Source: Malassezia furfur
Lineage: Eukaryota
Assembly: GCA_052055015.1 (NCBI GenBank)
Contig: JBQJIT010000015.1
Length of the DNA: 64,000 nt
Reading direction: 5' to 3' (one strand)
Shown: positions 6,793 through 58,818 of the stretch, piece by piece
Layout: every line of letters begins with the position of its first letter
Position numbering within the stretch: position 1 is the first letter of the stretch
Program-made: the position numbers and the translations under genes
Notes under the pieces: generated by a model
The model's input: the letters and a program-made list of their open reading frames with translations, nothing else
Told to the model about the DNA's origin: nothing
Databases searched by the model: none

Positions 6793-7717
6793 ATGGCGCA
6801 ACGCTGGCGTCCAGGGATGGCCGAGCGCACGGTGCTCACGCTGCTTCTGTTTGCTCTGCATACCGTGTATGCCGTGTACCGCCTATTTCGGGACATGGTG
6901 CTCGCATTGCCATTGCTTATGGGGCACGACGATGATACCCTGGTTCTGCGCCGAGCCGCGTCCCTGAAAATTCCGGCCCACCTCGCGGTGGTATTCCCGC
7001 TGCCGGCGCACCCCTTGTCAAGCTACGGTGCGACATGGACCTTGTTCTGCGAGAATAGAGCACAACGCAAAACCAGCGACGCACTCTACGACATTTTCCG
7101 ACTCGCGGTATGGTGCGCCTTGCTGGACACTGCCGAATTGTCGGTGTACGACCCGGTCGGTCGCCTGTGTGCCGCCTTCACATCGTTTACACGGCATCCG
7201 GAGACGCTACCAGATACGGTGGGAAATTTGCCGTATGGCTCGTGCGTGGGCGTCACCGTGCATGTGGCCGGTGCGCAAGGTGCCGGGCCATTCTCGCTCT
7301 ATGTACCAATCGCCGACGCGTTGCTCGTCGAGTACCGTGCCCGGTCCAAAGTGGAGCGCCCGCACATCCGTCTCAACGTCTTGTGTGCGTACGATGACAA
7401 GCCACGCATCGTGCAGGCCATGTCCAAGACACGACCGGCGTCGCTCACACCAACGGCTTTCCACGACGCGCTGTTGGCACAGGGCGTCATGACATGCGAC
7501 CCCGACGTGGTCGTCGTGTGTGGGGGGGCATCGCAGCCTTTGGCGTTGCATGGCTTCCCCAGCTGGGCTGTCCGCCTCGCCGACTTGCGGTAGGTTTTTT
7601 TTTTTTTTTTGACACAGCACACTGCCCTACCATGCTTGGCTCGGACGTTGGACCGTGCCCCAGTTCCTCGATACCCTGAAGCACTATGCACGCTCGGAGC
7701 AGCGGTTCGGTGCGTAG
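6793..7717 (+). CDS. NUS1: Dehydrodolichyl diphosphate synthase subunit Nus1/NgBR; intron 7590-7617
   Basis: IPAHLAVV, LSVYD, DPDVV..LHGFPSW. Splicing the 28-nt intron restores the conserved C-terminal ...EQRFGA* (RxG motif). Confidence 0.85.
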
Positions 7718-7748
7718 CTTCTCTATAGACACACCTTCCATAGCACCC

Positions 7749-9104
7749 TCACGCTGCGGGTGCCGGCTCGGCGCGCGCCGGGCCATTAACAGCCGGTGCG
7801 TGGCCCAGGCCGGTGAGGCCGACGGGCAGCATAATCGGCAAGAGGTCCGCGTTGCGGTCGAACAGGTGGTTGTGGCCACCCTCTTCCAGGCGGATGTAGG
7901 TCATCACGGTGTTGCGCGGCAGAACCGCACGCGCACCAGGCAGCAGTCCCTTTTTCTCGGGTAGCGGCGCGCCACGGTGCATCACAGCCTGCACGTACCC
8001 GACGTCGGGCACGTTCGACGACCACACGTGGTACGTCGACTGCCTGTCAAGCGCCTCAAACTGCTTTTCAACGCCCTCGTACAGCTCTTCGCCGTGGCGC
8101 ACAGGAATCACCTCGTCGTTCTCGGCGTGCATCAGCACGACAGTCGGCGGCACCATCGCATCGGGCTGCAGGTGACCATCAACAATCTCCGCCAACGCTG
8201 ACTGCGTGTCAAACGAGTAGTGCAGAAGCTTCTCGATGATCTGCTCGCGGAAGGGGAAGTATTCCAGCCAGCCCAGCAATGGAACGAGTCCGCCCATACG
8301 GAATTCAATGACCATCGGTCGGATCGCCTTGAACGCGGCCAGAAGCACCAGCGCATCGAGCGGCACCTTGTCGCGGTACATGCGCAGAGCACACTGTGTC
8401 GCGACACCCGTGCCCAAGCTCTGTCCCATGAGCGCTAGCGCGGGACGCTTGCCCGACTTGGGATCGAGAGACTTTTCGCGCACATACTGCACCGCCGCGT
8501 ACGCGTCGTTTACAACACCTTCCTCGGTCGGGAAGCTCTCCGAGTCGCCAAAGCCACGGTAGTCGATCGCAATCACATTGGCATTCTGCACCTTGGACAG
8601 CAGTTGGTAGGTGCGCACACGGAATTTCGCGGCACGGTTCAGCGCGTTGCCATGCAGGTACACAAAAGTTGGGTACTCGCGCAACGCACGCTCGTAGACC
8701 TCCTCGGGCAGCTCAGGGTTCTCTTCGTCGACCTGGCCCGCCATCTGATGGTACACCGAGTCGGGCAAGTGGTGCCAAACGCCGATCTTCACACCATCGT
8801 CTGTCGTAATCTGCAGGTTGCGCGCCTGGGCCGCTGCGTAAGTAGGTCACGTACGCTCGAGACCATGATAGTGCGGCTCCGCATAGCGTGGCTGGGTCAG
8901 CATTGACGACGTACCCAAAAAGGATAAGCAATCTTGTGCAGAAAGAGGTAGCTGGATGAGTCGTGCGCACGTACTGCCGCTGGAACTCGGGGATCCCCAG
9001 CACAAACATGAACGCTATGCACGCGCCGCCCGCGGCGAGCGCCTGTGTAAGCCGTGCACGCGTACGTAGAGGTTCATCCGTGCGAGCGTCGACCAGTTGA
9101 CCAT
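7749..9104 (-). CDS. ABHD12/Bem46-like membrane alpha/beta hydrolase; introns 9043-9065, 8952-8974, 8892-8914, 8834-8854
   Basis: YLHGNA, IDYRGFGDS, GQSLG nucleophile motif, HAENDEVIP. Four GTACG..CAG introns (23, 23, 23, 21 nt) join ATG 9104 in frame to the main ORF and give an N-terminal TM segment. Confidence 0.85.
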
Positions 9105-9133
9105 GCTGCGGACGACAGTAGGCTACCACGTGG

Positions 9134-10536: not shown

Positions 10537-11637
10537 ATGGCGGACGAGCCATACAGCGTGACCAGTGCGGCGACCGTGGACCCCGTGGACCATGCCGAGA
10601 CGGACATGGATGTACTCACACGCAAGATTGAGGACCGTGTCACGAACCTCGTTGGTGGCTTCTCGTCGTGGTGGAGCAACGTGAACCAGCAATCGCAGTC
10701 GGCGTTCCAAGCGGCACGCACGCAGATCGAGAAGCAGGGTGGCCTTGTGGCGACCGCCAAGCAGAGCTTCGCGCGGCTCGAAGAGTCAATGGAGCAGGCG
10801 AGCCAGGAGGCGCGCGCCAAAAGCCGCGAGGGGGTACAGCCCACCGAGCTTGGCGAGCCGTATGAGCTGGCGGACGATGCCGAGACGGAGCGTCCGGAGT
10901 CCATGTCGAGCGTTGACAAGGGCAAGCAACCCGCGGAACGTGTGCCAAAGGGCAAGCAGCCCGTGGGACGTATCCCAGCAGAGCCGCCGTCGCTTGCGGG
11001 ACTCGGCACGAGTGCGTGGACCTCGCTACAGCGCCTGGCGCATCTCCCGCAGGTCGCCAAAATCCAAGAGCAGATCTCTCATGCAATGCAGTCGAGCACC
11101 GAGGGCGAGTCGGGCCAGTCGCTTCAGCGTGTGCTCCACGACGCCGAGGCGCTCGTTACGCGGTATGTGCACGATGGTGAAGTGTTTGCGCGCGATGTGG
11201 GCAAAGATTTGCGCGGGCTTCTCGACGATGTGGTTAAGATTGTGCCGCCCGAAGAGGCCGAGCGCATTGCAGAAGACAAGCCCCAGCCCGTTGTGGATGT
11301 GCCCACCGATGCACCTGCCGCTGCCACGAACACGGCCGATGACAAGGTGTATCATACACTTGACGACGCCGACGACTTCCGCTGGGACGACGACGAGGAT
11401 GACGGCGGTGTAGCAATGGACCAGTTCTCGTCCCTACCTCACACCACTCCTACCCATACTACGACCTCTTCCGCCGAGACACCGGTCAGCGAAGGCGATG
11501 CACGGACCAGCGGCCATGGACACAGCGAGAATGCCGTGGCCTCTGGCTCTGTTCTCCCTTCACGTACCGAGACCAGCACCGCGGCCCCGAGTGTGAGCGG
11601 CGCTGGGGCGAACGACTCCGACTCGGACTGGGATTAG
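10537..11637 (+). CDS. Acidic conserved hypothetical protein, resembling fungal Dos2/BSD-family proteins
   Basis: Long ORF with a good ATG context (gccATGg). GFSSWW helix, DDFRWDDDED and terminal DSDWD resemble Dos2-like proteins. No clear BSD core is seen. Confidence 0.55.
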   Translation: MADEPYSVTSAATVDPVDHAETDMDVLTRKIEDRVTNLVGGFSSWWSNVNQQSQSAFQAARTQIEKQGGLVATAKQSFARLEESMEQASQEARAKSREGVQPTELGEPYELADDAETERPESMSSVDKGKQPAERVPKGKQPVGRIPAEPPSLAGLGTSAWTSLQRLAHLPQVAKIQEQISHAMQSSTEGESGQSLQRVLHDAEALVTRYVHDGEVFARDVGKDLRGLLDDVVKIVPPEEAERIAEDKPQPVVDVPTDAPAAATNTADDKVYHTLDDADDFRWDDDEDDGGVAMDQFSSLPHTTPTHTTTSSAETPVSEGDARTSGHGHSENAVASGSVLPSRTETSTAAPSVSGAGANDSDSDWD

Positions 11638-11675
11638 TAGCACTAAGTATTTCTCCACATAACGAACGGGCCAGC

Positions 11676-12127
11676 ATGGACGCCGAGGTGTTCCACGGTA
11701 CGCGTTATGCTCATATAGCGCGTGTCTACGATCTCGTGCGAGATATTCCACCAGGAAAGGTCACAACATATGGTACGTGCTCTGCTCATCCAGGCCACAT
11801 CGCCAAGGTATGTGTAGTGCTCACGTAGCTCGCAGGATACCCCCGCCGTACGTCGGTTTTCTCACGCAGACGCGCGCATGGTTGGCGCCGCGCTTAAATA
11901 CCTTCAAGATACTACCGTGCCATGGCAGCGCGTGGTGGGCTCGGGCGGCGTGATATCCGAGCGTGGCGATGGCGGCGAGGGGGCCGCCTACCAAGCGGAC
12001 CTGCTGCGCTCCGAAGGGGTGGAGGTAGTGCCGGCGCAGAGCGACCGCGGCCGCTGGCGCGTGCACTCGTTTGCCGCATGTGCGTGGGGTACGTGGAGAT
12101 TTCTCACCAGACGGACCTACGGAGTAG
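11676..12127 (+). CDS. ATL1: Alkyltransferase-like protein (ATL, MGMT family); introns 11698-11718, 11773-11793, 11808-11828, 11848-11869, 12089-12110
   Basis: Spliced product MDAEVFHARVYDLVRDIPPGKVTTYGHIAKLAGYPRHARMVGAAL...VPWQRVV. Trp in place of the catalytic Cys marks an ATL. The last intron donor is slightly ambiguous (12080 alternative). Confidence 0.92.
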
Positions 12128-13823
12128 TTCGGGACTGCTTCTCAAGCGCAGCGGCGTATGCGTGCACCTTGGAGCGGTCAACCGTATGTACATAGTACTT
12201 TCCACTCCCCCCCGTCCAGCTGACACACCCAGGGGTGTAGGTACGCTCCTCGACGCGCAGGATCGCGGCAGGGGACGACAACGTACGTTCGGTTAAGCGG
12301 AAGTCGTGGGGGACAAACGAGCGCAAGGAAACCACCATGGCGCCGTCTTTCAAATCGAGGAAGAGCAGGGAGAGGGTATCGTTGGTTTCCGGGCGGAACG
12401 CGTAGTTATTAGCCACCACCAAGTCGGCATCCCGCAGCGCCGCCCGCACATGCTCCGACTCGGTGAAGTCGGCGCACCACGTCTCCATCGGACCGCCACG
12501 GAGGTGCCACAGGTGCCAGCGTGCGCGCGCCTCCTGCAACTGTGCAGCGGCGAGCTGCGCAGGCACAGGCATGTACTCGCAGCCGTAGGCACGACACCCC
12601 GTTTGCATCGCGGCCTGCACCACGAGGTTACCAATGCCGCTCCCGAGGTCGACCAACACCGACTCGGGGCCCAGCTGCGCAAGCCGGCAGATCTCACTGA
12701 GAAACGGAGGGAGCATTTCGCCATACACATTGTCCGAGAAGGCCTCGTACTGCTTGAGCTTTTCAACATGTGGTGCAGCTGCACGCGCGTACACTTGGTC
12801 CTGGATCGTGCGCCAGACCGTTTCCGGCACGCCTTCGCGCTCGCCGAGGGACTTGAGGTGCTGCTCCATTATCCCCTCGTCTTTCAATTTGCGTAGCGCC
12901 GCATTAAAGCGATGCACGGTGCGTACAAACAGCGGCCCATGTCGCCGGTTGCGCGCCTTGGTGAAGGAACGGAGGATAGGGTCGGCGTCCAGGTCTTCCG
13001 ACTGGCTCATTGCCATGGGCGACGCCCGGTCGACGCGGCTCGGTGTCGACGCACGCGAGGCAGAGGCATGGTCTATGCTCGGCATGCGTGAACGGGTGTT
13101 GCGCCAATCGGTCAACAGTGCACCAGCATTGCTCGACACGTCCAGCGCATCCAGCGCGCCAAACTCGGACTGATGCGAGGGTGGAACGTAGTGCGCCACG
13201 ATCGCACCAACCGTCCGCAGTAAGTCAGAGATGGGATCGTACTCGTCGGTGTCACGAGGGACGAGCAGAGGGAATCTGGGTCAGGCAAAGCGCACGTACT
13301 CTTCTGAGGCGCCTTGGGAGGGGTACTCAAGCGAGACCACCGTGGTGTCGTCAAGATTTTCGAAGAATGCGCCATACTTGCACGTCGATTCGCGCACAAG
13401 CGCACGGCTTGAGATCGGTGGGGCAACGGTGTATGCTGCATCCGGCACAATGGGCCGCGAAACAGCGTAGTGGAACGGAACGCCCGGCCGCTGGTCGAGC
13501 ACGGACCGCGGCGACGCGTCGCGGTCGGGCGTGCGCATGACTGCCTGGACACGCTTGTGCTCCTTCTTGATGCGCTTCTTGGGCTGCTGTGCTGCGGCGC
13601 CGGAGCGCGCGGCCGCAGCGGTCGTAGCACGCGCCTGGGCCTGTGCGGCTTCGGCGCGCGTCGACTCGATGCGCTGGCGCACTGCGTCGGGGAGCGCATT
13701 GTGTCGCACCGCAGTCGGCGCTTTTGTCCGCGTTGGGGGCGCCGCCTGCGAAACACGCGCCGTGGTCACCACCGCCCGGCCCTGTGCACGCTCCTTCGGC
13801 TTCGCCCCACCAAAGAAGTCCAT
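12117..13823 (-). CDS. DOT1: Histone H3K79 methyltransferase; intron 13276-13299
   Basis: YEAFSDNVYGE, VDLGSGIGN, VVANNYAF, VSWT. A 24-nt intron removes the in-frame TGA that separates the two ORFs. Confidence 0.95.
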
Positions 13824-13874: not shown

Positions 13875-14959
13875 ATGGCGACGAACGCAGGAGCGCAGCG
13901 CCCTGCAACCGTGCCGTGCGCGTACAAGACGGGCCGAACGCTCGGCCAGGGAACATATGCCGTACGTGGCATTCACTTACGCAGGTGGTCAAAGAGGCGG
14001 TGCACATCGAGACTGGCAAGTACTACGCGTGCAAGGTCATTAGCAAGAGCCTCATGCGCGGGCGCGAGCACATGGTGCGCAACGAGATCGCGTCGCTGAA
14101 ACGCGTCTCGGTGGACCACAAAGGGATTGTATCGTTGGTCGACTATTTCGAGACGATGAACAACCTATACCTTGTCACCGACCTCTGCCAAGGCGGCGAG
14201 TTGTTCGACCGCATCTGCGAGCGGGGCAGCTACTACGAGAAGGATGCAGCGCAGATTATCCGAACCGTGCTCGAGGCGGTTGAGTACCTGCATGCACAGG
14301 GCATTGTGCACCGCGACCTCAAGCCCGAGAACTTGCTGTTCCGCGACCGCAGCGAGCACTCCGACCTGCTGATTGCCGATTTCGGCCTGTCGCGCATGGT
14401 CGATGACGACAAGATGACGGTGCTCAGCACGACGTGCGGCACTCCGGGGTACATGGCCCCCGAAATCTTCCGCAAGACGGGGCACGGCAAGCCGGTGGAC
14501 ATGTGGGCCATTGGCGTTATTACCTACTTCCTGCTCTGCGGCTACACGCCGTTCGACCGCGACTCGAGCGCCGAGGAGATGCACGCCATCGTGAATGCGG
14601 ACTACAAGTTCGAGCCCGAGATTTACTGGCGCGACGTGTCCGACGAGGCGCGTGACTTTATCCGCCGCCTGCTGACCATTGATCAGAACGAGCGGATGAC
14701 GGCGACACAGGCACTGCAGCACCCGTGGATCCGGCACGCGGGCCGTACCGAAGACGCGGATCAGAAGGACCTGCTGCCGGACATCAAGAGTGCGTTCAAC
14801 GCCAAGCGGACCTTCCGCAAGGCGGTGCATGGCATCCGCCTCGTGAACCGTCTTCGCTCCGAGACCCAGGAGCACCAGCTGGCACGCGCGCACATGGAGC
14901 AAATGCAGCAGCAGGCCCAGGACGAGTCGAACCAGCTCGAACAGGTCTGGGTTCCATAG
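13875..14959 (+). CDS. CMK1: Ca2+/calmodulin-dependent protein kinase I; intron 13962-13984
   Basis: Spliced Gly loop LGQGTYA|VVKE, HRDLKPEN, DFG, CGTPGYMAPE, and a C-terminal CaM-binding helix (KRTFRKAVHGIRLVNRL). Confidence 0.93.
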
Positions 14960-18172: not shown

Positions 18173-18342
18173 ACGCTCATTGGACATAGGATTTCGGCCG
18201 AAACGCGGGGGCGCCGGGCGTCGTCGTTCTTCGTCGTCTTTCATTGCGCTGCAGCGCTCGGAACGCCGCGCGAGACTCGCGAGACACCGTGCGGGGCATA
18301 TCACCGATCGCGCAGACGCTCCGTTCGCAGGCACGAGTAGGC

Positions 18343-33010: not shown

Positions 33011-33090
33011 GCGCGTGTGGAGGTGGGCTGACTAACGCCGAAAAAGCAGCGGCAGCGCATGGCTGGGGCGAACCTTAAATCGGCAACGAT

Positions 33091-47927: not shown

Positions 47928-50582
47928 ATGAAGTGTAAGTGGCCGTGCTGACGCAGTCTCCCACAGCTTGCAGCTGAACAGCGTCCCCGAATGGTCGGAC
48001 CAGTACATCAAGTGCGTATGCGCGGCTAACGCAGTTATCAACACCTCAAGAAGCTCATCTACTCGTTTGAGCGTGCGCAGTACACTGCGAACGACGCCGA
48101 GTCCGGTGCGCACCGTCTCGAGAGCGAGTCGGCTTTGCTACTCGATGCATCGCCGTCCGATACGGATGCTTTGTTTGTGCCGCATCTCGATAAGGAGCTG
48201 CGCAAGATCGTCGAGTTCTACTGCCTCAAGGAGAAGGAGCTGGCGGACGACGTGCGCGTCGCCCACGACCACGTTCGTCTCGCAGAGGAGGAATATCAGG
48301 CGTACCCTTCGGGAGGCGAGTCGGACGGCGATGTAAGCGAGGATGGCGACGAAGCGGCGCACTCGCCGCCAACGCGGCGCAAGACGCCGTCGTGGTACAT
48401 GCCGAAACGGCGACGCTCGATCGTGAGCCAAAGCGACAGCGAGGCGCAGCACGCGCAGGGCACCTCGCCCTCTACCTCTACCACGCTTCTACCCGCGTAC
48501 AAGGGGTGGATCAAGACGTTTGGTCGGCGTGGTTCGTTCCGTCGCGGCCGTCGCGCATCGGCAAGCGTCGACCACCGCGCGGATACCGACGTGGCCGGCG
48601 CCGGGGGCACGAGCATGGGCGGGAGCAGCATCGACGAGGCAGGGAGGTCCGTGTGGCTCTCGATGGACGAGTATGCGATCGATGTGCGCATCACGCTCAA
48701 GCGCGAGCTCACCGCTCTGTACACGTCACTCTCGGAGCTGCAAAAGTATACTGAGCTCAACCTCACAGGCATGGTCAAAATTCTCAAAAAGTACGACAAG
48801 ATTACCGGCAGCCAGCTCAAGGACCGCTACGTGGAGCAGGTCGTCAAGGTCAAGTACCCGTTCCAACCGCACGCACATGCACAGCTTGACGCGTACCTCG
48901 CCGAGGTGCTCCAGCTCTACGCGACCGTCGCGACGCGCGGCGACGTCGAACAGGCACAGACACAGCTTAAGGCACAACTGAGGGAGGAGGTCGTGTGGCA
49001 GCGCAACACGGTATGGCGCGAGATGATCAACATCGAGCGGCGTGCGCAGGCGGCGTCGCTCGAGGGCGGCGGCATCGGCACGGCGGCCGGCGACCTGCTG
49101 GCCAAGGAGGCGCTGCCCCCACGCGTGCTGCACACCCCGTGCGGCGACGTGCTGCTGCCCGCCTTTCTGACGACGGGCACGTTGCAACTGTTTGTGTCGC
49201 TGGTGCTGTTTGTGCTTCTGCTCAAGAGCCCCGCGTTCCGCGTGTTTGACGAGGTGGAGGTGCAAAACTGCTTTGCCCTGCTGGTGCTGTGTACCTGCCT
49301 GTGGGTCACCGAGGTGATCCCGCTGTTTGTCACCTCCTTCCTCGTGCCACTGCTCATTGTAACGCTGCGCGTCGCCCGGGTCGAGCACGATGGCGAGCGG
49401 CGGCGCATGACCGCACCCGAGACGAGCAAGTGGGTGTTTCAACAAATGTTCGCGCCGAGCGTCTCGCTGCTGCTCGGTGGCTTTACGCTCGCCGCGGCGC
49501 TGTCTAAGTACGGCATCGACAAGGTGCTCGCAACCCGCGTGCTGCGCCTCGCCGGGACGAAGCCGAGCGTCGTGCTGCTGGCGCACATGCTCGTCGCATG
49601 CTTTGCGAGCATGTGGATTTCCAACGTCGCTGCGCCCGTGCTCATGTTCTCGCTGGTGCAGCCGATCCTGCGCAACCTGCCGCCCAAGTCGCCGTACGCC
49701 ACCAGCCTGGTCATGGGCATTGCACTCGCGTCCAACATCGGCGGGCAGACGTCGCCGATCGCCTCGCCGCAGAACCTCATTGCGCTTGAGTACATGAAGC
49801 AGCCGATCGGCTGGCTACAATGGTTCTCGATCACGATTCCTGTATCGGGCGTGTCGCTGCTGGTGCTCTGGGCACTGCTTCTGTGGTCCTTTGGAAGCGG
49901 CAAGGGCGTCGTGATCAAGCGCATCCCCGAGCCGAGCCATGCACTGGACAAGACGCAGTGGTTCATCTCGGCGGTGTGCATCGGCACGATTGTGCTGTGG
50001 TGCGTTGAGCGCAAGATCGAGTGGATTGTGGGCGACATGGCCATTGTTGCAATCGTGCCGCTTGTGTGCTTCTTCGGGACGGGGATCCTGACCAAGGAAG
50101 ACTTCAACAACTTCCTCTGGACCATTGTGTTCCTCGCGATGGGCGGCATTGCGCTTGGTAAGGGCGTCGACTCCAGCGGGCTGCTCTCGGCGCTCGACCA
50201 CTTCGTGCAGTCGCACGTCGAGGGGCTGCCCCTGTACCGCATCCTCCTCTTTCTCGTCACCACCGGACTCGTGGTCGCGACCTTTATTTCGCACACCATC
50301 GCCGCGGTGCTTCTTGTGCCGCTCGCCGCACAAATCGGCGAGAATCTGTCGCAGCCGCACCCGCGCCTGCTCATCATGGCGACGGTGCTCACCGCAAGCG
50401 CGGCCATGGGGCTGCCCATCTCGGGCTTCCCCAACATGACCGCCATCAACCTCGAGGACGAGGTGGGACACCGCTACGTGTCGGTGCGCACCTTTTTGCG
50501 CGTCGGCATCCCGGCGAGTCTGCTTGCGACCGCGGTGATCAGCAGCGTCGGGTACGCCCTCATGTCGCTGCTCGGTCTGTAG
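47928..50582 (+). CDS. SPX-domain low-affinity phosphate transporter (Pho87/90/91 family); introns 47935-47956, 48012-48034
   Basis: Spliced MKFSHSLQLNSVPEWSDQYINYQHLKKLIY (SPX start), KILKKYDK, SMWISNVAAP, SPIASPQN, SGFPNM. Confidence 0.93.
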
Positions 50583-50612: not shown

Positions 50613-51953
50613 CTAGGTGCGCGTGTGTCGGTGCGCGAGCCAACGGCCCACCACTTCGAACGAGCCGATCATAATGCCACACGACGGCGCAACCTTGGCA
50701 AGGCGCGGTGTCAGGCCACGGAACACGCCTGTCACGCCCTCGGATGCGACGATGCGGCGCAGCGTGCCAAGCATCGCGTTCGTGGGCTGCGGCGCGCCAG
50801 GGGGGTATCGGTGGTTGCGTGTCTGCGTCTCGGCTTGCAGGCGCGTCTTGACGAGGTCAAAGGGATGCGTGAGGAACGCGGCGACGCTCCCGCTCGTTGC
50901 GCCCACACCAAACGAGATGCCAAACTCTTGCCAAAACGTCGACGTGTGGCTCTCGCCGAAGCCCGCGCCGGTAAACAAGTACTTGCCGCCCTCGTAGCCG
51001 GTGAAGTAGATTGCCGAGAAGGGCACATCGCGCCATAGCGTCGCAGACAGCCCGCGCCACAGGACGCTAATGCCTTTGGTCTGTACGTCGCGGTACAACG
51101 GCTCGAGTACGGAGGCGAACGACGAGCGGCCATGCGACGCCTGCAGCCGCGTGCGCAGCAGCTCGAGCGGCGTGACGAGCGTCGCGGATACGGAGCGCGA
51201 CAAAGCGCCTGACACCAGCGATGCAGCCAGCACCGGCACACGGAACGCGCTCTTCGGCGCCTCGTCCAGATCGTACGGCATGCCCCCGGGAATCTCGGGC
51301 ATACATATTTCGTTCTCGTCGAACATCGACGGCACCGTCGTGATCGGTGGCGCGTCCAGCGACAGCAGCAGCCGGCGGAACGCGTCGTAGCACGTCATGT
51401 ACGTCACCTGCGACGGCACCGTCATCGCCACGGTCGGCACCAGGCCGCGCCACAGGCCACGCCAGCCTTCGGCGCGCAGCACCTTGACGATACCATCCAG
51501 GATGCCGTGCATGCGCTGCTCGTGCAGCAGCGTTTCGACCTCACACACATGTGGTGTGCACTTGCCGGGGTACACGCACGCTGCCTGTCCGTTGGCCGCG
51601 AGCGTCACGGGGAAGGTCGACACGCGGTACGACGCCGAAGCGCGCGACGACCACAACGAGAGGGAGCTGCGCTGCTGCTGCGCAGGGCACGCATGTATTT
51701 CGTGCGCCACGGCACGGGGAGGAGGCGATGACTCGGTCGGAGCCTCGGCGTATCCAGCGTACCCGAGATCGTGCTGCGTCTGCAGACGGGTCTTAACCAC
51801 ATCCAGCGGCGTCACTGCGTCAGGAGGTCACGTACTCAGCACAGACGTCGTGAATGCGCCAACAATCGCGGCAATGGCCCGGTCCGTATGTGACATGGTG
51901 ACATGCACCGGCCCATCGTCCTGGCCGCCACGCGGCTCGGACTGCTGCGACAT
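50613..51953 (-). CDS. MTM1: Mitochondrial carrier, Mtm1/SLC25A39-40 family; intron 51815-51835 (alternative start 51995)
   Basis: Three PxDxxKxR signatures (TPLDVVKTRLQ, TPLELLRTRLQ, HPFDLVKTR), a Cys-containing insert in loop 1, and WRDVPFSAIY. Confidence 0.85.
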
Positions 51954-52056
51954 GTTCGCGACTGCCAGGGACGCGAACGGTGCGGTGGCGAACATCCGCC
52001 GCGGCCTTTTAACGAGCTTATGTAAGAAGGGCCGCCTCCACCACGCGCCCTGGCTA

Positions 52057-53826
52057 TCAGATAGGCAAATCGGCCCCCGCGGCGCCCGATGCTTCGTCCG
52101 ATGTCGCCGCGGCGCGCCGCTCGGCACGCCGCCGGCCCTTGCCTTCGCGCCACTTTTCGTTCTTGGCACTCGCTGAAACGTCGCGTGGGCGGCGCACCAT
52201 TGGCGTGTACTTGGTCGTAGGGCGCAGCGCGCCGTTGCCCAGCGGTACAAGCTGAGCACGCGGCGCCTGCGGCGTCACCAGTGTCGGTACCGGCAGACGC
52301 GGCGTGCGCGACACCTCGAACGACGTGGATGCGGGCAGCGTCGTCGTCGCAGTCGTCGCACTGGCAATCGTAAAGTGACGCAGCAGCTCCGCATGAATCG
52401 CCTCGCGCGTCCACTGCGCGTGCAGATTTGCCGTCGCGCGCAGCGTCGGCGTAAAGTCGAGCGCATCGCTATGCACCGCGTCCATCGCATCGTTCGCACA
52501 TGCACGCCATTGCACGTCATCCTCTCGGAAGCCACACTCCCATAGCATCAGCGGGCGGTCCGCGGCCATCTCGTAGCTGGGCTTCGTCTCGTACACAGCC
52601 AGCGTCTCGCTCACCTTCGGCAGCAAACGCAAGCGCGTGTAGCCGGGCGCATCGTCGTCAAGCATTGCGAGCGCCTGTGCCCGGTCGTGTGCCGCAGCCC
52701 CCGTATGCACATTCACAAGCTCGTCCACAATCGACGGGTCCTCGAGGCGCGCACCAACCAAAAACAGTACCGCCATAATGTTGCGCACTTGGTGATACAG
52801 GAATGCAGAGCCGCGCAGGTTCAACACGTACATCGACTCGGTCGCCTCGGTGTCGGGCATCACCACCGGCAAATCCTGTGCCGTTGGCCACCCGATCGGG
52901 ACCGCGTCGATCGTCGCGCCATCGATGCGGCGAACAAAGTTGGTAATCTGCTTGCTTGCGTCAACTTTGCACAGATTGCGAAAATCGTGCTCACCAAGCA
53001 GCCGCGACGCCGCATCGCGCATCCGTTCCACATCCAGACGATTTGCAAACTGCGAGCCGCTCCCAGGCTGCCAAGCCAGCGCACTCGGCGCTCCTAGCGT
53101 GAAAAAGTACTTGTAGTGCCGGTAGGTACAATCAAAACGCGCAGAGAAATCCGCACGCACCGGCGACCATGCCTGGATCCGGATCGACGGTGGCAAGAGA
53201 CGGTTGAGTGTCGCGACGTAGGGCAGTTCCTCACCAGAACTCAGGCGCTCGGGGGCAGGCATCTCAGCAGCGCTCCCCGAAAAGTTTCGCAACGCCCGTT
53301 CGTCGACACATCGACTGCGCACCCATAACGCAATCACTTGGCCTGCGGCACTCACGCCCGCATCTGTGCGCCCACACCGGCTCCAGCCTGCGCCCTCCAT
53401 ACCCTTTTCCGGGTCCACAAGTCGCGCCGTACACAGCGCCTCCCAAATCGTCTCTTCCACGGTTGGAAGCGGCGTCACTTGCTGTGTCTGCGCGGCGAGA
53501 CCCGAATACCGGCTTCCATCGTAGCAGAATCGCAGTGCAATCTTTCGGCACGGCTGTGCAGAAACATCGAATGGACGTGGCGCTTTGGCTTTGGGCTTGG
53601 CCTCCTCAGTCTCTTCCGAAAACGCGCGCTCGGGTTCTGGCACTGCAAGGTGTGCCGACGACGCCGACGCCTCCAATTGCGCGATTCGTCTCAACAGCTG
53701 ACTACGGGTCCAGTCACCGTAGCGCTCGTAGGCGGTCATGATATGCGTTGTAGGGCCAGTAAAGTAACAACGACCTGCGCGAACCCCTCGTACACAAACT
53801 CCCCACGCCTTTGGCGCTCGAAGCAT
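52057..53826 (-). CDS. DEG1: tRNA pseudouridine 38/39 synthase (second in-frame ATG 53739)
   Basis: RKIALRFCYDG, RCGRTDAGVSA, FSARFDC.YRHYKY, GEHDFRNLCK, GSAFLYHQVR. Confidence 0.93.
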   Translation of the reverse strand: MLRAPKAWGVCVRGVRAGRCYFTGPTTHIMTAYERYGDWTRSQLLRRIAQLEASASSAHLAVPEPERAFSEETEEAKPKAKAPRPFDVSAQPCRKIALRFCYDGSRYSGLAAQTQQVTPLPTVEETIWEALCTARLVDPEKGMEGAGWSRCGRTDAGVSAAGQVIALWVRSRCVDERALRNFSGSAAEMPAPERLSSGEELPYVATLNRLLPPSIRIQAWSPVRADFSARFDCTYRHYKYFFTLGAPSALAWQPGSGSQFANRLDVERMRDAASRLLGEHDFRNLCKVDASKQITNFVRRIDGATIDAVPIGWPTAQDLPVVMPDTEATESMYVLNLRGSAFLYHQVRNIMAVLFLVGARLEDPSIVDELVNVHTGAAAHDRAQALAMLDDDAPGYTRLRLLPKVSETLAVYETKPSYEMAADRPLMLWECGFREDDVQWRACANDAMDAVHSDALDFTPTLRATANLHAQWTREAIHAELLRHFTIASATTATTTLPASTSFEVSRTPRLPVPTLVTPQAPRAQLVPLGNGALRPTTKYTPMVRRPRDVSASAKNEKWREGKGRRRAERRAAATSDEASGAAGADLPI

Positions 53827-53847
53827 GCACACCGACCTTTTTCGTGA

Positions 53848-55444
53848 TCACGTGTTGTGGAGTGCACGGTGGAGGATGTCACTTTCTTGCAGCGCGTGGA
53901 GGACCACGCTGCAAAGCACGGTGGACTCGGCCTGCACGCCCGTTGCGTCATGTTCCAAGATTGCTCCTGCTTCATCATCATGCGTCGCTGCATAGTTGTT
54001 TTGTAGGCGCATTGTGCACAGATGCGCAAGACACTGGCGTGCAAGTGCTGTAGCCGCTGTCGGCTGTCGCTGCTCGACGTCGATGGCCCGTGCGTTAGCA
54101 AACACTTGGTTGACCAACAGCGACCATCCCTTGATAGGAGTGCTGCGGCAAACAAGTACCGCGCCAACAAAAAAGCGCCACAAGCACCAGCTTATGCGCC
54201 CCGTTGCATCGAGGAAGAGCGGTCGCTGCTGATCGCGTGGGGACTGCAACGATACGAGGGCACTCTCTGCAAACGCCTCCGTCGCCGAGTGCTTGCCCGT
54301 GGCATCAACGTGTGTAGGGGTATGCGTTGAGTCCATTGAAGCCAAAAGCAGGGTCAATCCAGGCGTATGGGTATCTTGTGCGGGTGTGTAGGCCAGAAAG
54401 TGGGCTAAGGTACGCTCCAACTCTCGGCGATCAGAGGGCAAGTCGGGCGACCAACTGCAGCGGTCGTTCAGGGTTTTGCTTCCCAGGACAAACCCATACT
54501 GACAAAGAAGCTCGGCATTGCCTAGCTCTCCATATGTATTGATCAGTTCCTCATCGGTGTCGATTTCCTCAACGCAGCGTACGTCGACCGTGTTGGAAAT
54601 CGAGGACGATATAACAGCATGGCAGCTGCCTCGATGCTGCACGCCGCAATACATGCAGACATTTTCCTCTGCTTCGACATGAACATTGTGCATGTCTGTG
54701 TGGTTAAACAAGTCCGCAATGGGTACCATGCATAATCTGAGTGAGAGTCAACGCACGTACCCATGAAAGACGTTCACCACGAAGGCACGACTCGAAACCA
54801 GGGTAAATGCATCCACAAAATTATCAAAAGACAACTTGGAACCGATATTCTCCAGGGTGCTAGCACTGTACCGGTCCCAGTATGATTTCAGCCGCCGCTA
54901 CGTTAGCAGCACACTTACTAAGGAACACCCCGGTTTTAGATTTTTGTCGGCATCCCAAAATTGTGAGGCGCGTTGTACGTTGCGCCATGCCTCGGTCCCA
55001 ACAAACCATACATTGCCTTCCCAGTGCAGAGGCCAACATAATGGAAGTGAGACATACTGGGGGAGGCTCTGGATGTACCCATAGAATTTTGATGCCTTCC
55101 CCAGATGCCGCTCATAGCATAGGCAAAGTGCCAGGTGGAGCGCATCATCTTTGCATTCTGAAACGGCCATTTTGAAGCTGTCACTCTGACCGAGCGCGCT
55201 GCTCCTGGTCGAATAAAGTGCACCGCTAGGAATCCAGGCCACTGGGTTAATATGCGCGCGTACCGACATCGTTTCGCCCGATTCTTTCTTTCGCGCGCAC
55301 GGTCCATGCGCCCGGGCTTGCATTCCATTCAAGGTCTTCATCCATTTCAAGATCTAGTGGCACTTGGACGACCGCTATGCGATCGTCAAGGACCACGCCT
55401 TGTTCTTCGCACCATTCCAGCAGAGTTGCCAAGCGCTGATCCAT
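53848..55444 (-). CDS. SET-domain protein lysine methyltransferase (Rkm3/SETD6-like); introns 55242-55263, 54898-54918, 54737-54760
   Basis: Spliced product has VSSRAFVVNVFHGLCMVPIADLFNH, ELINTYGELGNAELLCQYGF, YGYIQSLP. Confidence 0.85.
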
Positions 55445-55497
55445 TGGTAGGAGCGGGGTATGTGGAGGCAAATGGGCACATTTTCGTAGCTGCGACC

Positions 55498-55941
55498 ATG
55501 TCGTCAAGTAAGACCGTGTATATTGGTGCGTGTTCGGCTTAATGTACAGGCGGAATCGACAAGGACACAACCGAGGAACTCCTCTACCAAGCTTTTGTGA
55601 CCTTCGGCGAGATTAGTGACATTCAGCTGCCACGCGTCTCGGAAGGGGGTAAGTTTTCGACACTCACGCAGCATCCGCAAACCGTGGGTTTGGCTTCATC
55701 ACTTTCTCCCAAGAAGAAGAGGCCGAGGACGCGATCGATAACATGCACCTAAACGAGTTCCGTGGCGTACGTTTAGATCTAATACAGAACGTCATTACGG
55801 TCAATGCAGCGAAACCCCACAAAATTCAGACCGCCGATCCCTGGCGACCTATTTGGGAGACCGAGGTACGTTTCGACACCAACGCAGGAATGGATCAAAG
55901 AATACGGGGCCACACATAAGAGCGAAGATGATACTCGGTGA
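55498..55941 (+). CDS. Stand-alone RRM protein similar to the cyclophilin E (Cyp33/PPIE) RRM; introns 55526-55549, 55649-55671, 55767-55787, 55866-55887
   Basis: Spliced MSSSKTVYIGGIDKDTTEELLYQAFVTFGEISDIQLP..NRGFGFITF..AEDAIDNMHLNEFRGNVITVNAAKP..PIWETEEWIKEY. Missed by the ORF track. Confidence 0.85.
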
Positions 55942-55986
55942 TATGGTGATAGTGTTGCACAGGTGGTATACTATCGATTATGGATA

Positions 55987-56761
55987 TTACAGAAGGCGAT
56001 GGATATTGTCATTCTCCAGGTCCACCAGCGTCTTGGCATCGTACTTTCCATCTTCACGCGGCTGGTCGAGAAGCCTCTGCCACCACTTGAACAAGAACTC
56101 GTTCACGATGAGCTTGAACCACGGCGTGAAGGCCGACGCTGGGTGAGTAAAAAACGTACGATCCAGTTCGTTCATGAGTGTCTTGAGCTCCTCCATCGAG
56201 ACCCACTTCACGTCACACACTTCATTAGGGTTCACATTGAGCGTAACAGGTGTGGTCAAGAAAAGGATATAGTCGACTGTGGTCAGTCGGACAAAGCAAC
56301 ACACCTTCGTGTTCACCCCACAGCCCATCACTAGGCGCCATGTAATGGATGCGCGTGAGGAACTGAATGTCTTTCACATTTACTTGGTCCAAAGCAATGC
56401 CGAGTTCATGCTCGAGCTTCCGCCGCGCTGCGTTTTTGGCACCCTCCTTGCCGTCTAGTTCGGAACGCACCGCCAGCGGGTGAGAGCAGCAGGTGTTCGT
56501 CCACATATTGGGGAACGTGATTTTCTCCAGAGCACGGCGCTGGAGGAGCAACTTGCCCGTCGACGGGTCGAAGAGGAACATGGAGAACGCGCGATGCAAG
56601 AGGCCCTCGCGAATGTTGGTCATCAGGTGGCACTCTTTCTTGCTACCATCGCGCACATAATTGTCGTCGTTGTCCACCACAATGCAGCGCTCCTCCATGA
56701 GGCGGATCTGCTCCTCATCATGTCCCTGAAGAGAGACGTCTTCAGCTGGCGCACCGTTCAT
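55987..56761 (-). CDS. IDI1: Isopentenyl-diphosphate delta-isomerase; introns 56277-56304, 56139-56159
   Basis: [40 protein letters not shown]. Confidence 0.96.
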
Positions 56762-56864
56762 GATCGCGAATCCTTCGTGAGAACGTCGTGCCGTAATCAG
56801 GCGAGGTGAATGTCACGTGCATCCACGGTATGTGTCGTGCGCGCCTAGGCTCACCTTCCTAACC

Positions 56865-57820
56865 ATGGCGTCGAGCACGGACACAATTGACGTCCATCCC
56901 TGGGTCCATCCTGAATTTCGGCCCGGAGATGTCGATAAAATTATCTCGGATGTTGGTGCGTTTTTAGCTAATGCCTAGATCGTTACAACCCCCAAAACCG
57001 CGGCGTCCTGTTGGAATACCTCAACACACAACTGAAGAACGGGACATACGACGCCTTGCCAAACTTGGCCATCCTGAAACTGTACGTACCACACCAAGCC
57101 GGCACCCAGGATGAAATTTTTTTTGTCAGTTGTGAGCGTTGTGGACTCGAGACCCACGCGCGCAGGACGTCTTGTTATTAGCTCTAGCTGAGGCCGCTGG
57201 TTGTTTTGCCAAGGACATGCTGACCACAGCTTCCAACTCAACCCGAACGAGTTCGATTTTGATACCGCTATATATATCCTGGTTAAAGCGCTTATGGCCG
57301 TGCCGTTTGCCGACTTTAGCCTCTGCATTTCGCTCTTGGGCGAAGCCCCTGTCGCTACGCTCACGGCGAACGACAGCGCAAAGAGTACCGGCGCGTCGGG
57401 TATCATCATCGAGCCTGTCATCGCGCATCTTTCCACTCTCTCGACTCTGCTTTTTGAGGCTAAATTCCGCGACTTTTGGTCGTTCTACCAAAGCGCCGAG
57501 TTTGCTGACGTTCGTTCATATACCAGCAAAGCACATGGGTTTGAGGATGCCGTGCGAAAGATGGCTCTCGACAGCGTCCAAAGTACCTTTCGAACCATTT
57601 CGACGGAGCGCCTTGCAAGCTACCTTAACATGCCCGTGGCAGACCTGGAAACCTTCCTTGGGAAGCAGGCCGGGTGGTCTATCTCCAACGGGACTGTTCA
57701 CGTACCAAAAAACCCAGAGAACGACGTGAAGCCCTCCGTGGCCCGCGAGGAGATTTCGCTAGAGAGTACGTGGTACCACACTGACAGTTAGACTTGTCCA
57801 AATTACTGGCGCAGGCATAG
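56865..57820 (+). CDS. Translation initiation factor 3 subunit K; introns 56956-56978, 57082-57229, 57766-57791
   Basis: Spliced VDRYNPQN..YDALPNLAILKLFQLNP, ILVKAL..PFADFSLC, GFEDAVR, PKNPEND. Confidence 0.92.
57100..57197 (+). ncRNA. Intronic box C/D snoRNA, U44(SNORD44)-like, predicted 18S rRNA 2'-O-methyl guide
   Basis: Variant C box AGGATGA at 57108-57114 and D box CTGA at 57188-57191. The 12-nt guide TATTAGCTCTAG (57176-57187) is complementary to conserved 18S CUAGAGCUAAUA. Flanking CGGC/GCCG stem. Lies in an atypically long intron. Confidence 0.8.
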
Positions 57821-57846
57821 CACATCTGTAGAAATTATATTTACGA

Positions 57847-58818
57847 TCATGAGGAGACGCGCCATGTCCCGAGACACTCGATGTGTGCCTCGGTATCCGC
57901 ACTACGCATGACCTTAGCCAGGAACGAGGTCGGGTGAGGGGGTATCGAGGTGGTAGTGTGGTCGGACGGCTTGCATGTAAGCTCAACTAAGAGCAATGGA
58001 TGTCCGTGGGCTGTCGTGGGCACGACGTTGACGATATGCCATCCCGCAGCATCTTGGCCTGCAACTTGCATGAAGAGCATACACTCAAGTGTCGTGCTGA
58101 TTCGATACATTGTCCGTACGGCATCTTGACTTGTTCCCTGCCGGGAGCGGTAGGCCTGCATCAGCGCCGCGACATGGGCATCCCTTGGGTTGCACGTCGC
58201 AACAACAAAGCGCGTCGTGTTTTCTGCGTGAGCATAGGTAGGCATACCGTTGGAGTTTTGGATCCCTCGGACTAGGACTTGTGCGTTACTCAGTTCTGCT
58301 GCAAGCTCCGAACCAATGGCCGCGTCCATGTCGGACTGCAGAAGAGCGACGGCCTCAGCCGTCGACGGAGCTTCCTCGCGCGCCGCATGTGGCAGACGCT
58401 TTGCGAGGAACTGGGAGCATTGCCCGAGCGCCTGGGGGTGACTACGGACCACACGCAGGTTGCCAAGTTGGGCTGTGACATCATGCGAAGCTTGCCGAAC
58501 GATCAGCGCGTGCGCAATACGCAAGTCGACTTCCTCGACGATCTTGAGTGCATGGGGCCCAAATGTGGCCTCATCGCCCAGGCAGGCAAACGTCTCGAGC
58601 ACGGGCCCCTGCACGCTGTTGCTCAGCGGCACCACCACGACGATCGAGTGCGGGGCACGCGGGGCCGGAGCGATGCCTGCCTGCACAGCCGCGTGGATGG
58701 AAGGATGGGCGTGCAGGGTCACCGCATTTCCGCATGCAAACTGCCGCGCCGCCTGGTGTGAATAGGTCCCGAGCGGCCCCAGAAAAGCGACGCTGACGGT
58801 ATCCGCTGGGACCTCCAT
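57847..58818 (-). CDS. PHA2: Prephenate dehydratase; probable in-frame intron 58224-58247
   Basis: VAFLGPLGTYSHQAA, PLSNSVQG, SHPQALGQC, STAEA, IQNSN|ENTTRF. Confidence 0.9.
   Translation of the reverse strand: MEVPADTVSVAFLGPLGTYSHQAARQFACGNAVTLHAHPSIHAAVQAGIAPAPRAPHSIVVVVPLSNSVQGPVLETFACLGDEATFGPHALKIVEEVDLRIAHALIVRQASHDVTAQLGNLRVVRSHPQALGQCSQFLAKRLPHAAREEAPSTAEAVALLQSDMDAAIGSELAAELSNAQVLVRGIQNSNGMPTYAHAENTTRFVVATCNPRDAHVAALMQAYRSRQGTSQDAVRTMYRISTTLECMLFMQVAGQDAAGWHIVNVVPTTAHGHPLLLVELTCKPSDHTTTSIPPHPTSFLAKVMRSADTEAHIECLGTWRVSS

Follow-up and report, generated by a model that had tools for sequence, protein, structure and literature searches.

Forty-four GT-AG introns, spread over 21 of approximately 35 genes, were curated in a 64-kb stretch of Malassezia furfur DNA (hereafter the window). 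They are probably ordinary U2-type spliceosomal introns, compacted down to the limit of what splicing tolerates, and the data from the window require no unusual splicing machine. Their ends, donors and branch sites, and the proteins restored by their removal, are those of U2-type GT-AG introns. Judging from its sequence, the host belongs to the furfur/brasiliensis group of Malassezia: among named proteins, those of M. brasiliensis (91% and 96%) and M. furfur (83%) matched the window best.

Intron lengths and support for individual introns

The curated set confirmed that the short introns in the window are real. Ten introns were 21 nt long, eight 22 nt, nine 23 nt and six 24 nt; the rest comprised seven of 25–29 nt and single introns of 34, 46, 148 and 254 nt. 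The mean length was 32 nt against a median of 23 nt, the commonest lengths were 21–23 nt, and density was approximately 1.3 introns per gene. Lengths showed no bias towards multiples of three (remainder classes of 16, 14 and 14). All introns but one lie within positions 7590–58247, for which a preliminary description had reported 42 introns, 31 of them of 21–24 nt and eight of exactly 21 nt. Our curation of the same interval yielded slightly higher counts (43, 32 and nine, respectively) and recovered both the seven introns of 25–29 nt and the identical four longer ones. The remaining intron (21 nt) lies outside this interval, at 3000–3020.

Covering both strands, a strict, model-free motif scan found 30 matches of 20–24 nt, where 100 block shuffles predicted 3.1. 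With relaxed criteria there were 36 matches of 21–24 nt (5.1 expected) and 15 of 14–20 nt (9.1 expected); the motif stood approximately tenfold above shuffles at 21–24 nt only. The segments could in principle be assembly errors or artefacts of fitting gene models to GC-rich sequence, which yields many spurious ORFs, and initial gene-finder runs were indeed strongly over-spliced. The signal matrices of the gene finder were trained on 20–24-nt motif matches; its length prior was flat over 12–70 nt, with a slight advantage to short introns from its correction for how many branch positions are possible. Such an origin has almost no probability, however, given the length-specific excess over shuffles, the exact absence of seven of the segments from orthologous genes of another species, and comparative or homology support for 38 of the 44 introns. 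The other six were called from ORF restoration only (four) or splice signals only (two).

Contigs L002 and L004 of another Malassezia species were used for comparison. Their orthologues both showed seven exact, intron-sized gaps with aligned flanks, corresponding to fimbrin introns 1 (24 nt, 47769–47792) and 2 (22 nt, 47551–47572), both on the minus strand; SPX-domain transporter introns 1 (22 nt, 47935–47956), which follows a 7-nt first coding exon, and 2 (23 nt, 48012–48034), both on the plus strand; the mitochondrial carrier intron (21 nt, 51815–51835, minus strand); intron 3 (24 nt, 54737–54760, minus strand) of a gene at 53848–55444 that has no Pfam match; and NUDIX gene intron 2 (21 nt, 56139–56159, minus strand). 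Two further junctions, those of introns 1 (22 nt, 55242–55263) and 2 (21 nt, 54898–54918) of the same minus-strand gene at 53848–55444, were spanned by a continuous L002 reading frame that aligns over them. Six orthologous introns were retained in L002/L004 with lengths of 24–31 nt, and the window copy was the shorter in five of the six. Thus, fimbrin intron 3 (23 nt, 45928–45950, minus strand) is 31 nt in both contigs, and introns 1 (24 nt, 55526–55549), 2 (23 nt, 55649–55671), 3 (21 nt, 55767–55787) and 4 (22 nt, 55866–55887) of a small plus-strand RRM protein gene are 25, 26, 25 and 24 nt in L002, respectively, with Pfam RRM_1 continuing over the junction of intron 2. NUDIX gene intron 1 (28 nt, 56277–56304, minus strand) is 27 nt in L002. 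Fimbrin intron 2, whose position is common to other fungi, where the intron measures 53–58 nt, is an old intron that has shrunk. Evolutionary loss and shrinkage, like the introns themselves and their geometry, are matters of observation.

For several genes, spliced models were aligned with homologous proteins. The minus-strand ABHD12-like lipase, with introns 1 (23 nt, 9043–9065), 2 (23 nt, 8952–8974), 3 (23 nt, 8892–8914) and 4 (21 nt, 8834–8854), gave a gap-free alignment with orthologues from Malassezia and Ustilaginales, and reading through intron 4 leads to an in-frame stop. The plus-strand eIF3k model, with introns 1 (23 nt, 56956–56978) and 2 (148 nt, 57082–57229), likewise showed no gaps when aligned with Malassezia and Ustilago eIF3k. 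Introns 1 (24 nt, 29550–29573), 2 (25 nt, 29633–29657) and 3 (26 nt, 29774–29799) of the PAC2 proteasome chaperone gene, on the plus strand, gave gapless junctions, with no junction gap against 10 of 11 aligned homologues, the 10 being those that cover the junction. In the plus-strand alkyltransferase-like (ATL) gene, the spliced model fits the M. brasiliensis ATL1 protein at introns 1 (21 nt, 11698–11718), 2 (21 nt, 11773–11793), 3 (21 nt, 11808–11828) and 4 (22 nt, 11848–11869); introns 2 and 3 are followed by exons of 14 and 19 nt, and in the exon after intron 4 Pfam DNA_binding_1 begins at profile position 32. Support for ATL intron 5 (22 nt, 12089–12110, plus strand), which has strong signals, is partial: the uninterrupted relative P0124 fits the spliced junction, and the M. 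brasiliensis annotation is unspliced there.

Other junctions were placed by structures or domain profiles. Ribosomal protein S29, on the minus strand, has introns 1 (46 nt, 39424–39469), 2 (254 nt, 39141–39394, the longest in the window) and 3 (29 nt, 39012–39040); splicing yields a 56-aa model whose exon 3 corresponds to residues 22–54 of 56-residue S29 chains. No Rfam match was found within the 254-nt intron or within the 148-nt eIF3k intron. The exons flanking the intron of a CaMK-type protein kinase (23 nt, 13962–13984, plus strand) align next to each other on DCLK1 chains (residues 8–33 and 35–279 of 5jzn_A, the short exon with an E-value of only 0.04), and those of the branched-chain aminotransferase (23 nt, 41647–41669, plus strand) end at residue 110 and begin at residue 111 of 1ekf_A. 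With the minus-strand WDR55 gene, exon 1 ends before intron 1 (26 nt, 43440–43465) at position 95 of the Pfam WDR55 profile, while at intron 2 (22 nt, 43046–43067) exon 2 ends at position 189 and exon 3 starts at 191, with a split codon between. The unspliced Pfam PDT alignment of prephenate dehydratase needs an 8-residue insertion exactly at its intron (24 nt, 58224–58247, minus strand). Removal of the MutS homologue intron (34 nt, 32689–32722, minus strand) restores the frame; the exon after it matches the MutS_I profile from position 29 onwards, and Pfam and PDB searches with the exon before it found no match.

Three introns called from ORF restoration only are a 28-nt intron with a T16 run (7590–7617, plus strand), which links two ORFs in different frames in a gene without a Pfam family; a DOT1 intron (24 nt, 13276–13299, minus strand), whose removal takes out an in-frame stop between two coding ORFs; and an intron of an esterase-like gene (22 nt, 39893–39914, plus strand), whose removal restores the frame and takes out a stop. 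Splice signals identified the 21-nt introns of the AATF/TRAUB-domain gene (3000–3020, minus strand) and of a DEAD-box helicase gene (44155–44175, plus strand), both multiples of three that can be read through without a stop.

Splice signals and their spacing

The searches were restricted to GT-AG ends, other intron types being outside their scope, and all 44 introns have a 5' GT and a 3' AG. An extended GTRNGT-type consensus was present at the 5' splice site: G1, T2 and G5 were invariant, while A3 was found in 38 introns, C4 in 32 and T6 in 36, and 23 donors read GTACGT. None of the 44 donors was of the U12 type (ATATCC or GTATCC; branch site TCCTTAAC). Every branch adenosine was assigned by motif; CTNAY was present in 39 introns, the others having TTAAC (two), TTGAC, TTAAT or CCAAC, so that all but the last conform to YTNAY. 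Exactly 5 nt follow the branch adenosine in 35 of the 44 introns, and in the remainder 4 nt (one intron), 6 nt (three), 7 nt (three), 8 nt (one) or 10 nt (one). These observations agree with the preliminary description, which had noted GTACGT-like donors, a branch motif whose A usually lies 6 nt from the 3' end, and the lack of a polypyrimidine tract, for which there is no room after the branch point. Its figure of approximately 15 nt from 5' splice site to branch point proved to be the minimum: the smallest position of the branch adenosine was 16 from the 5' end, with 15 nt before it, and 12 introns had it there. Two introns with the adenosine at this position and longer tails are 22 and 23 nt long. 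The spacer between donor and branch motif was 6 nt in 12 introns, 7 nt in seven, 8 nt in nine, 9 nt in six and 10–14 nt in six.

Intron 3 of eIF3k (26 nt, 57766–57791, plus strand) bears on the distance from branch point to acceptor. Here the second AG is used, and an AG 3 nt past the branch adenosine is skipped. Models with the intron spliced at 26 nt, spliced at 22 nt or retained were compared, and the conserved C-terminus of the orthologues was obtained from the 26-nt model only; the 22-nt and retained forms, which did not reproduce it, were ruled out. Skipping of the AG at +3 points to a minimum branch-to-AG distance.

In these terms each short intron is nearly all signal: a 6-nt GTACGT-like donor and a 6–9-nt spacer lead to the CTNAY branch site, which is followed by N-Y-A-G. 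The 21-nt minimum is made up of two distinct minimum distances, the first requiring the branch adenosine at position 16 or later and the second placing the 3' AG 5 nt past that adenosine. From general knowledge of spliceosome structure, these distances may be steric limits of a normal spliceosome, against which deletion bias or selection for compactness would pile introns as against a wall. A floor that splits into two independent minima fits such a combination of ordinary steric limits and compaction. Splice sites would have to be recognized over the intron instead of the exon, since some internal exons measure only 14 and 19 nt.

Nature of the length minimum

The preliminary description had instead suggested a length-measuring, possibly remodelled spliceosome. 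In such a scenario, early recognition factors, for example SF1/BBP, U1 proteins or the large subunit of U2AF, would be lost or altered in the lineage, and a fixed ruler of approximately 21–24 nt would define introns. That 33 of 44 introns fall inside a 4-nt span is consistent with this proposal, as are the 5 nt after the branch adenosine, too little for a polypyrimidine tract, and the spacing in 21-nt introns, where the donor hexamer and the branch pentamer are just 6 nt apart and the usual U1 and branch-binding footprints would be expected to abut. The length-measuring element, however, is not supported by the comparison of longer introns and orthologues. Donor, branch and acceptor signals are the same in introns of 21 nt and in those of 25–254 nt, lengths of orthologous introns differ between species, and the floor consists of two separate minima. 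Because these signals are common to the introns of 34–254 nt, and because orthologous introns measure 24–31 nt, the data indicate a wall and not a ruler; splicing at a fixed length is not supported, the introns being spread over 21–254 nt and not confined to a narrow band. Likewise, the length distribution is one-sided, a wall and a tail without a peak, and spacer counts fall off from their minimum in the same manner. The sole splicing factor encoded in the window is PRP3, whose two Pfam domains are both full-length. We therefore regard a remodelled spliceosome as improbable, and compaction of ordinary introns as the better account.

The floor itself was derived from 44 introns in 64 kb. With so small a sample, the true genome minimum could be lower and rarer, shorter introns simply absent from the window; 21 nt is no universal limit, since introns of 15–16 nt are described for Stentor in PMC13644364. 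An in-frame 18-nt candidate with weak signals in the prephenate dehydratase gene (58065–58082) may also be such an intron. None of the 15 motif matches of 14–20 nt qualified as a credible intron. Against a sampling effect, counts drop from 10 introns at 21 nt, the commonest length, to none at 20 nt or less. Moreover, in six introns a second GT resembling the consensus lies 4 nt downstream of the donor, and its use would give introns of 17–20 nt and would shift the frame in all six; in the lipase and in the gene at 53848–55444, orthologues confirm the outer donor. A sampling effect is thus unlikely, though less so than a remodelled spliceosome.

It is conceivable, and we put this forward tentatively, that Malassezia of the furfur/brasiliensis group splices at a hard two-part limit, with the branch adenosine at position 16 at the least, the AG at +5 and an AG at +3 ignored. 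If so, the median intron length of a free-living or commensal fungus would be 23 nt, equalling that of the record-holding animal parasites, while its donor and branch signals would still be strong, it would have more than one intron to a gene, and 14-nt exons would lie between two introns of 21 nt. This combination would break the published rule that very short introns have degenerate signals. It may need altered early recognition, in which no U2AF-type factor reads a polypyrimidine tract and the donor and branch sites are engaged in sequence, not together.

Comparison with published short-intron systems

Very short Malassezia introns are already documented. Table 2 of PMC5389616 gives 5,350 introns in 4,493 genes for M. 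sympodialis, with a mean of 30 bp and RNA-seq support for 99%, a density that resembles the 44 introns per approximately 35 genes of the window. The median in M. restricta is 30 bp (PMC9241646, Table 1), and a review of the genus refers to 'very short introns' (PMC7426719). Published Malassezia are alike in genus, in their compact genomes and in having GT-AG introns only a few tens of bases long; the window median is, on the other hand, below the published means and medians, and below the mode of the further Malassezia contigs analysed, which is approximately 25 nt. The earlier point that such lengths call for special gene-finder settings accords with the minimum intron of 10–20 nt stated for Malassezia annotations in PMC6473144 and PMC5389616. 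Our literature searches, which covered text, turned up no paper stating the intron floor or branch geometry; a length distribution is shown as a picture in Supplementary Figure S8 of PMC5389616. A full-text count of a 2026 paper on lineages with introns below 30 bp gave zero mentions of Malassezia in the text counted (PMC13644364).

Encephalitozoon and Trichomonas, intron-poor parasites to which the basidiomycete yeast Malassezia is unrelated, also have short introns with strong signals, but they have very few, in contrast to the density in the window. Comparable lengths at a likewise relatively high intron density are described, in PMC13644364 and PMC2483917, for Paramecium (approximately 25 nt), the Bigelowiella nucleomorph, dicyemids, myxozoans (a median of 22 bp in some) and Stentor (15–16 bp). 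According to section 15 of PMC2483917, 5' sites are weak in ultra-short-intron lineages and a branch signal cannot be detected, whereas in the window G5 is invariant and CTNAY is present in 39 of 44 introns. The ciliate/nucleomorph-type pattern, a 5' site that is weak beyond GTA and no branch signal, was therefore not seen; the signals are strong. Introns that are short, fairly numerous and strongly marked place Malassezia outside the two classes set out in that paper. The intron-poor yeasts treated in the same source (Irimia and Roy, 2008; PMC2483917) likewise have a strong branch consensus and a narrow branch-point-to-AG distance, although their introns, unlike those of the window, are not particularly short.

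Gene models and the intron set

Protein searches placed the host in Malassezia, with M. brasiliensis as the best named match for the lipase (91%) and the alkyltransferase-like (ATL) protein (96%), and M. furfur for eIF3k (83%). The window contains tightly packed eukaryotic genes at 57–68% GC per 4-kb block, and Pfam searches of open reading frames (ORFs) identified about 30 of them, among them PRP3, NOT1, two ABC transporters, a MutS homologue, fimbrin, a DEAD-box helicase, eIF3k and two secreted-type aspartyl proteases. Genes were modelled with a finder that used a codon-usage score from twelve long ORFs and a flat intron-length prior. Early dynamic-programming runs over-spliced or merged adjacent genes; later runs were hand-curated from the sequence. 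The codon score, whose training ORFs came mostly from the GC-rich part, gave weak values for low-GC genes. GC content was 61–68% in 1–32000 (average ~65%), compared with ~57% in the last 12 kb (52000–64000).

The resulting 21 multi-exon models run from ATG to stop with no internal stops and contain 44 introns. Lengths were 21 nt (10 introns), 22 nt (8), 23 nt (9), 24 nt (6), 25 nt (1), 26 nt (3), 28 nt (2) and 29 nt (1), followed by four longer introns: 34 nt in the MutS homologue (32689–32722), 46 and 254 nt in ribosomal protein S29 (the latter at 39141–39394, minus strand), and 148 nt in eIF3k (57082–57229, plus strand). Introns above 100 nt were confined to these two translation genes, S29 and eIF3k, and Rfam detected no snoRNA or other known RNA inside the 254-nt or the 148-nt intron. 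Multiples of three were not favoured (16, 14 and 14 introns in the three classes modulo 3), and half of the 16 introns with such a length carry an in-frame stop. The shortest internal exons, 14 and 19 nt, both lie in the ATL gene, and the initial coding exon of the SPX transporter has just 7 nt. A preliminary description of this DNA had reported 42 introns between 7590 and 58247, limits that correspond to the first base of a 28-nt intron and the donor base of a 24-nt intron; we count 43 in that range. The 21–24-nt class has 32 members rather than 31, and nine rather than eight introns are exactly 21 nt, while the seven introns of 25–29 nt and the four longer ones agree in both counts. That description is borne out almost intron for intron and, as judged from sequence, the introns are confirmed as real.

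Comparative or homology support was obtained for 38 of the 44 introns. Spliced models were gap-free at the junctions for lipase (against Malassezia, Ustilago, Pseudozyma and other orthologues), for eIF3k (against M. furfur, M. japonica, M. vespertilionis, Ustilago and an agaric) and for PAC2 (against the 10 of 11 homologues spanning its junctions). Of the five ATL introns, four were gap-free in the alignment to M. brasiliensis ATL1, and the fifth was only partly supported. When exons were searched singly, WDR55 continued from Pfam profile position 189 to 191 across the junction, the two sides of the branched-chain aminotransferase (BCAT) junction fell on residues 110 and 111 of 1ekf_A, and the kinase exons on residues 33 and 35 of 5jzn_A, the E-value of the 29-residue kinase exon being weak (0.04). 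The S29 model has 56 residues, and its exon 3 matched residues 22–54 of 56-residue chains. Left unspliced, prephenate dehydratase required an 8-residue insertion in its Pfam alignment at the intron site. Pfam returned no match for 19 of 32 exon queries, including the first exons of the MutS homologue, BCAT, kinase and mitochondrial carrier, and exon 1 of the MutS homologue also had no match in PDB. ORF restoration was the sole basis for four introns (7590–7617, 13276–13299, 32689–32722 and 39893–39914), and splice signals for two (3000–3020 and 44155–44175).

Several candidates were set aside. Signals were weak, and the ORF did not require splicing, at 4955–4977 (23 nt), 11430–11489 (60 nt) and 38778–38846 (69 nt); at 46891–46928 and 47555–47582, which are antisense shadows of fimbrin; and at 57125–57165 with 57174–57229, for which the single 148-nt intron was substituted. 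With respect to acceptor choice, 47935–47966 (32 nt) was displaced by a 22-nt form that fits an exact gap in the other species, and 58184–58247 (64 nt) by a 24-nt form. For the first ABC transporter, a plausible N-terminal exon lies in a frame different from that of the main ORF (24579–24775, plus strand). The sole GT–AG join, a 28-nt stretch at 24747–24774, begins with the atypical donor GTCCAC, and was left out of the intron count because it lacks the otherwise invariant G5; an unusual intron, a frameshift and an assembly error are all possible explanations. The two ABC transporters (24658–29253 and 33079–37926, plus strand) are paralogous, have two genes between them, and are both long uninterrupted ORFs.

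Splice signals and the 21-nt lower limit

Both strands were scanned for a donor GT[AG]NGT followed by CTNAY as the branch motif and then by an AG within a length of 16–79 nt, with 100 block shuffles as control. This strict scan gave 30 matches of 20–24 nt where 3.1 were expected, the remaining lengths being at background. A looser scan gave 1, 0, 2, 3, 2, 4 and 3 matches at lengths of 14 to 20 nt (1.0–1.9 expected per length), 11, 8, 10 and 7 at 21 to 24 nt (1.2–1.4 expected per length), and one at 25 nt. The short-intron signal is genuine and sets in abruptly at 21 nt. The 15 matches of 14–20 nt comprised six inner GTs of real introns, five sense-exon, three antisense and one intergenic match. 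Three of the sense-exon matches shift the frame; the other two, 18 nt and in frame, lie in the profile-aligned part of WDR55 and in the prephenate dehydratase gene. None of the 15 is a credible intron, with 58065–58082, in frame and 18 nt, left as a weak possible candidate.

The short introns are laid out as a 6-nt donor, a spacer, a CTNAY branch pentamer and a short tail ending in AG. Of the 44 introns, 23 have GTACGT as donor, and G1, T2 and G5 are invariant; CTNAY is present in 39, and the acceptor is CAG in 37, TAG in six and AAG in one. Between donor hexamer and branch pentamer lie 6 nt (12 introns), 7 (7), 8 (9) or 9 nt (6), with single introns reaching as far as 14 nt, and pyrimidine enrichment of the spacer is only mild (31% T, 26% C). 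The branch A, assigned by motif, is followed by exactly five bases in 35 of 44 introns, and its distance from the 5′ end has a minimum of 16, reached in 12 introns. In two introns the branch A stands at position 16 and the tail has 6 or 7 nt, for totals of 22 and 23 nt. The 21-nt length is thus the sum of two separate minima, 16 + 5, and not a measured total.

Two further kinds of site bear on these distances. In eIF3k intron 3 an AG occurs 3 nt past the branch A, and use of the next AG gives an intron of 26 nt. Comparison of the 22-nt form (57766–57787), the 26-nt form and retention revealed that only the 26-nt model restores the conserved C-terminus of the orthologues, and the 22-nt acceptor was rejected. 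This is direct evidence that the AG must lie at some minimum distance from the branch. At the other end, a further consensus-like GT lies 4 nt inside the donor (GTACGTGCG-type) in six introns: 3000–3020, 8952–8974, 13276–13299, 48012–48034, 54737–54760 and 54898–54918. Use of the inner GT would leave introns of 17–20 nt and shifts the frame in all six; where orthologues discriminate, in lipase and at 54737–54760, the outer GT is the one used. These six are natural test cases for donor choice.

The preliminary description had taken the tight length mode to suggest a special, length-measuring spliceosome. We found no support for this proposal: long introns bear the same signals, orthologous introns can be longer, and the length distribution is one-sided. 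The introns resemble standard major-type introns, with recognition across the intron, and nearly all bases of the short members are part of some signal. A physical lower limit combined with a drive to compactness would produce a one-sided distribution, and would equally give long introns that carry the signals of the short ones, as well as longer orthologues. The 16-nt and 5-nt distances may then represent steric limits of an unaltered spliceosome. Any reading on U1, U2AF or SF1 could only be inferred, PRP3 being the only splicing factor in view.

Intron loss and shrinkage within Malassezia

Metagenome contigs from another Malassezia species (L001, L002 and L004) were retrieved by scanning with a fimbrin exon. 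Their fimbrin is 81% identical in protein to that of the window and their GC content is 55–56%; L002 and L004 share 93.5% DNA identity, and both are syntenic with 45.6–56.8 kb of the window, the interval covered by comparative DNA. A three-way DNA alignment, in which the exons on either side were matched, showed seven of the predicted introns to be exactly missing from both L002 and L004: fimbrin introns 1 and 2, both SPX-transporter introns, the mitochondrial-carrier intron, 54737–54760 and 56139–56159. In the gene at 53848–55444, two further junctions were spanned by a single continuous L002 reading frame. Six introns were kept at the same sites with similar signals and different lengths: the four of an RRM gene (25, 26, 25 and 24 nt in the other species compared with 24, 23, 21 and 22 nt in the window), one of the NUDIX gene (27 compared with 28 nt) and fimbrin intron 3 (31 compared with 23 nt).

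Nine of the 15 intron positions compared are therefore exactly intron-less in the other species, which indicates precise loss. With six positions kept, and no introns unique to the other species in the proteins compared, these data point to intron turnover in the genus that is both fast and precise. Precise loss also fits the published intron counts of 2,150 for M. restricta and 5,350 for M. sympodialis (PMC9241646; PMC5389616). Other fungi (~60% protein identity) have an intron of 53–58 nt at the position of fimbrin intron 2, so at least some of the tiny introns are old introns that have shrunk.

Relation to the published record, and further features of the window

Very short introns in Malassezia are already known, and the present results overturn no current knowledge. 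In M. sympodialis, 5,271 of the 5,350 introns, of mean length 30 bp, were reported as supported by RNA-seq, with a mapping range of 10–2000 bp (PMC5389616); for introns of M. restricta, a mean of 37.2 bp and a median of 30.0 bp were reported (PMC9241646). Malassezia genes have been described as having 'very short introns' (PMC7426719), and a minimum intron length of 20, later 15, has been set in Malassezia annotation (PMC6473144). Lineages with the shortest introns have been characterised by weak signals and intron-poor lineages by strong ones; Encephalitozoon and Trichomonas have short introns with strong signals, but are intron-poor (PMC2483917). Lineages with introns below 30 bp have been listed as ciliates, microsporidia, dicyemids and myxozoans, with 15–16 bp in Stentor (PMC13644364), and a full-text search of that paper found no mention of Malassezia. 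Full-text literature searches likewise found no paper stating a length floor or branch geometry for Malassezia. Three aspects may be noteworthy: the median of 23 nt in the window lies below the published means and medians of the genus; the lower limit separates cleanly into 16 + 5; and introns that are short, fairly numerous and strong in signal form a combination not discussed in the relevant passages of the comparative papers cited.

Gene calling in such genomes fails unless introns as short as 21 nt and exons as short as 14 nt are permitted. Six database proteins for this DNA or close relatives (P0001, P0003, P0006, P0121, P0131 and P0133) are simple ORF calls that start within genes or include intron-encoded residues; four of them, P0001, P0003, P0121 and P0133, run through introns or end early. 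Such entries can mislead homology searches. Malassezia is a genetically tractable yeast (PMC7426719; PMC5654937), and one with introns at a sharp lower limit would offer a convenient system for studying minimum spliceosome spacing, with 16 nt to the branch and 5 nt to the AG as a concrete, testable prediction.

Other features of the window were recorded. The gene for PRP3, a U4/U6 snRNP protein (3–1436, plus strand), is cut by the window start and has no intron in its visible part; both Pfam domains are complete (PRP3 domain, profile 1–220 of 220; C-terminal domain, 2–138 of 138). An Rfam tRNA match (45681–45780, minus strand; 100 nt, 52.2 bits) lies just beyond the fimbrin end, is 94% identical to L002 and is of a size that would accommodate a tRNA-type intron; ARAGORN made no tRNA call, this one included. 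The match accounts for the overrun of the long fimbrin ORF past its true stop. In the NOT1 frame (18190–24390, plus strand) the first ATG occurs only at codon 145, and the whole stretch that follows the upstream PIG-N gene, as far as 18625, is free of ATG. The sequence preceding that ATG resembles conserved N-terminal protein; a non-AUG start, a mis-assembly or an extra exon missed here may account for it. The neighbouring aspartyl protease genes (59220–60422 and 61140–62768, plus strand) are both long uninterrupted ORFs.
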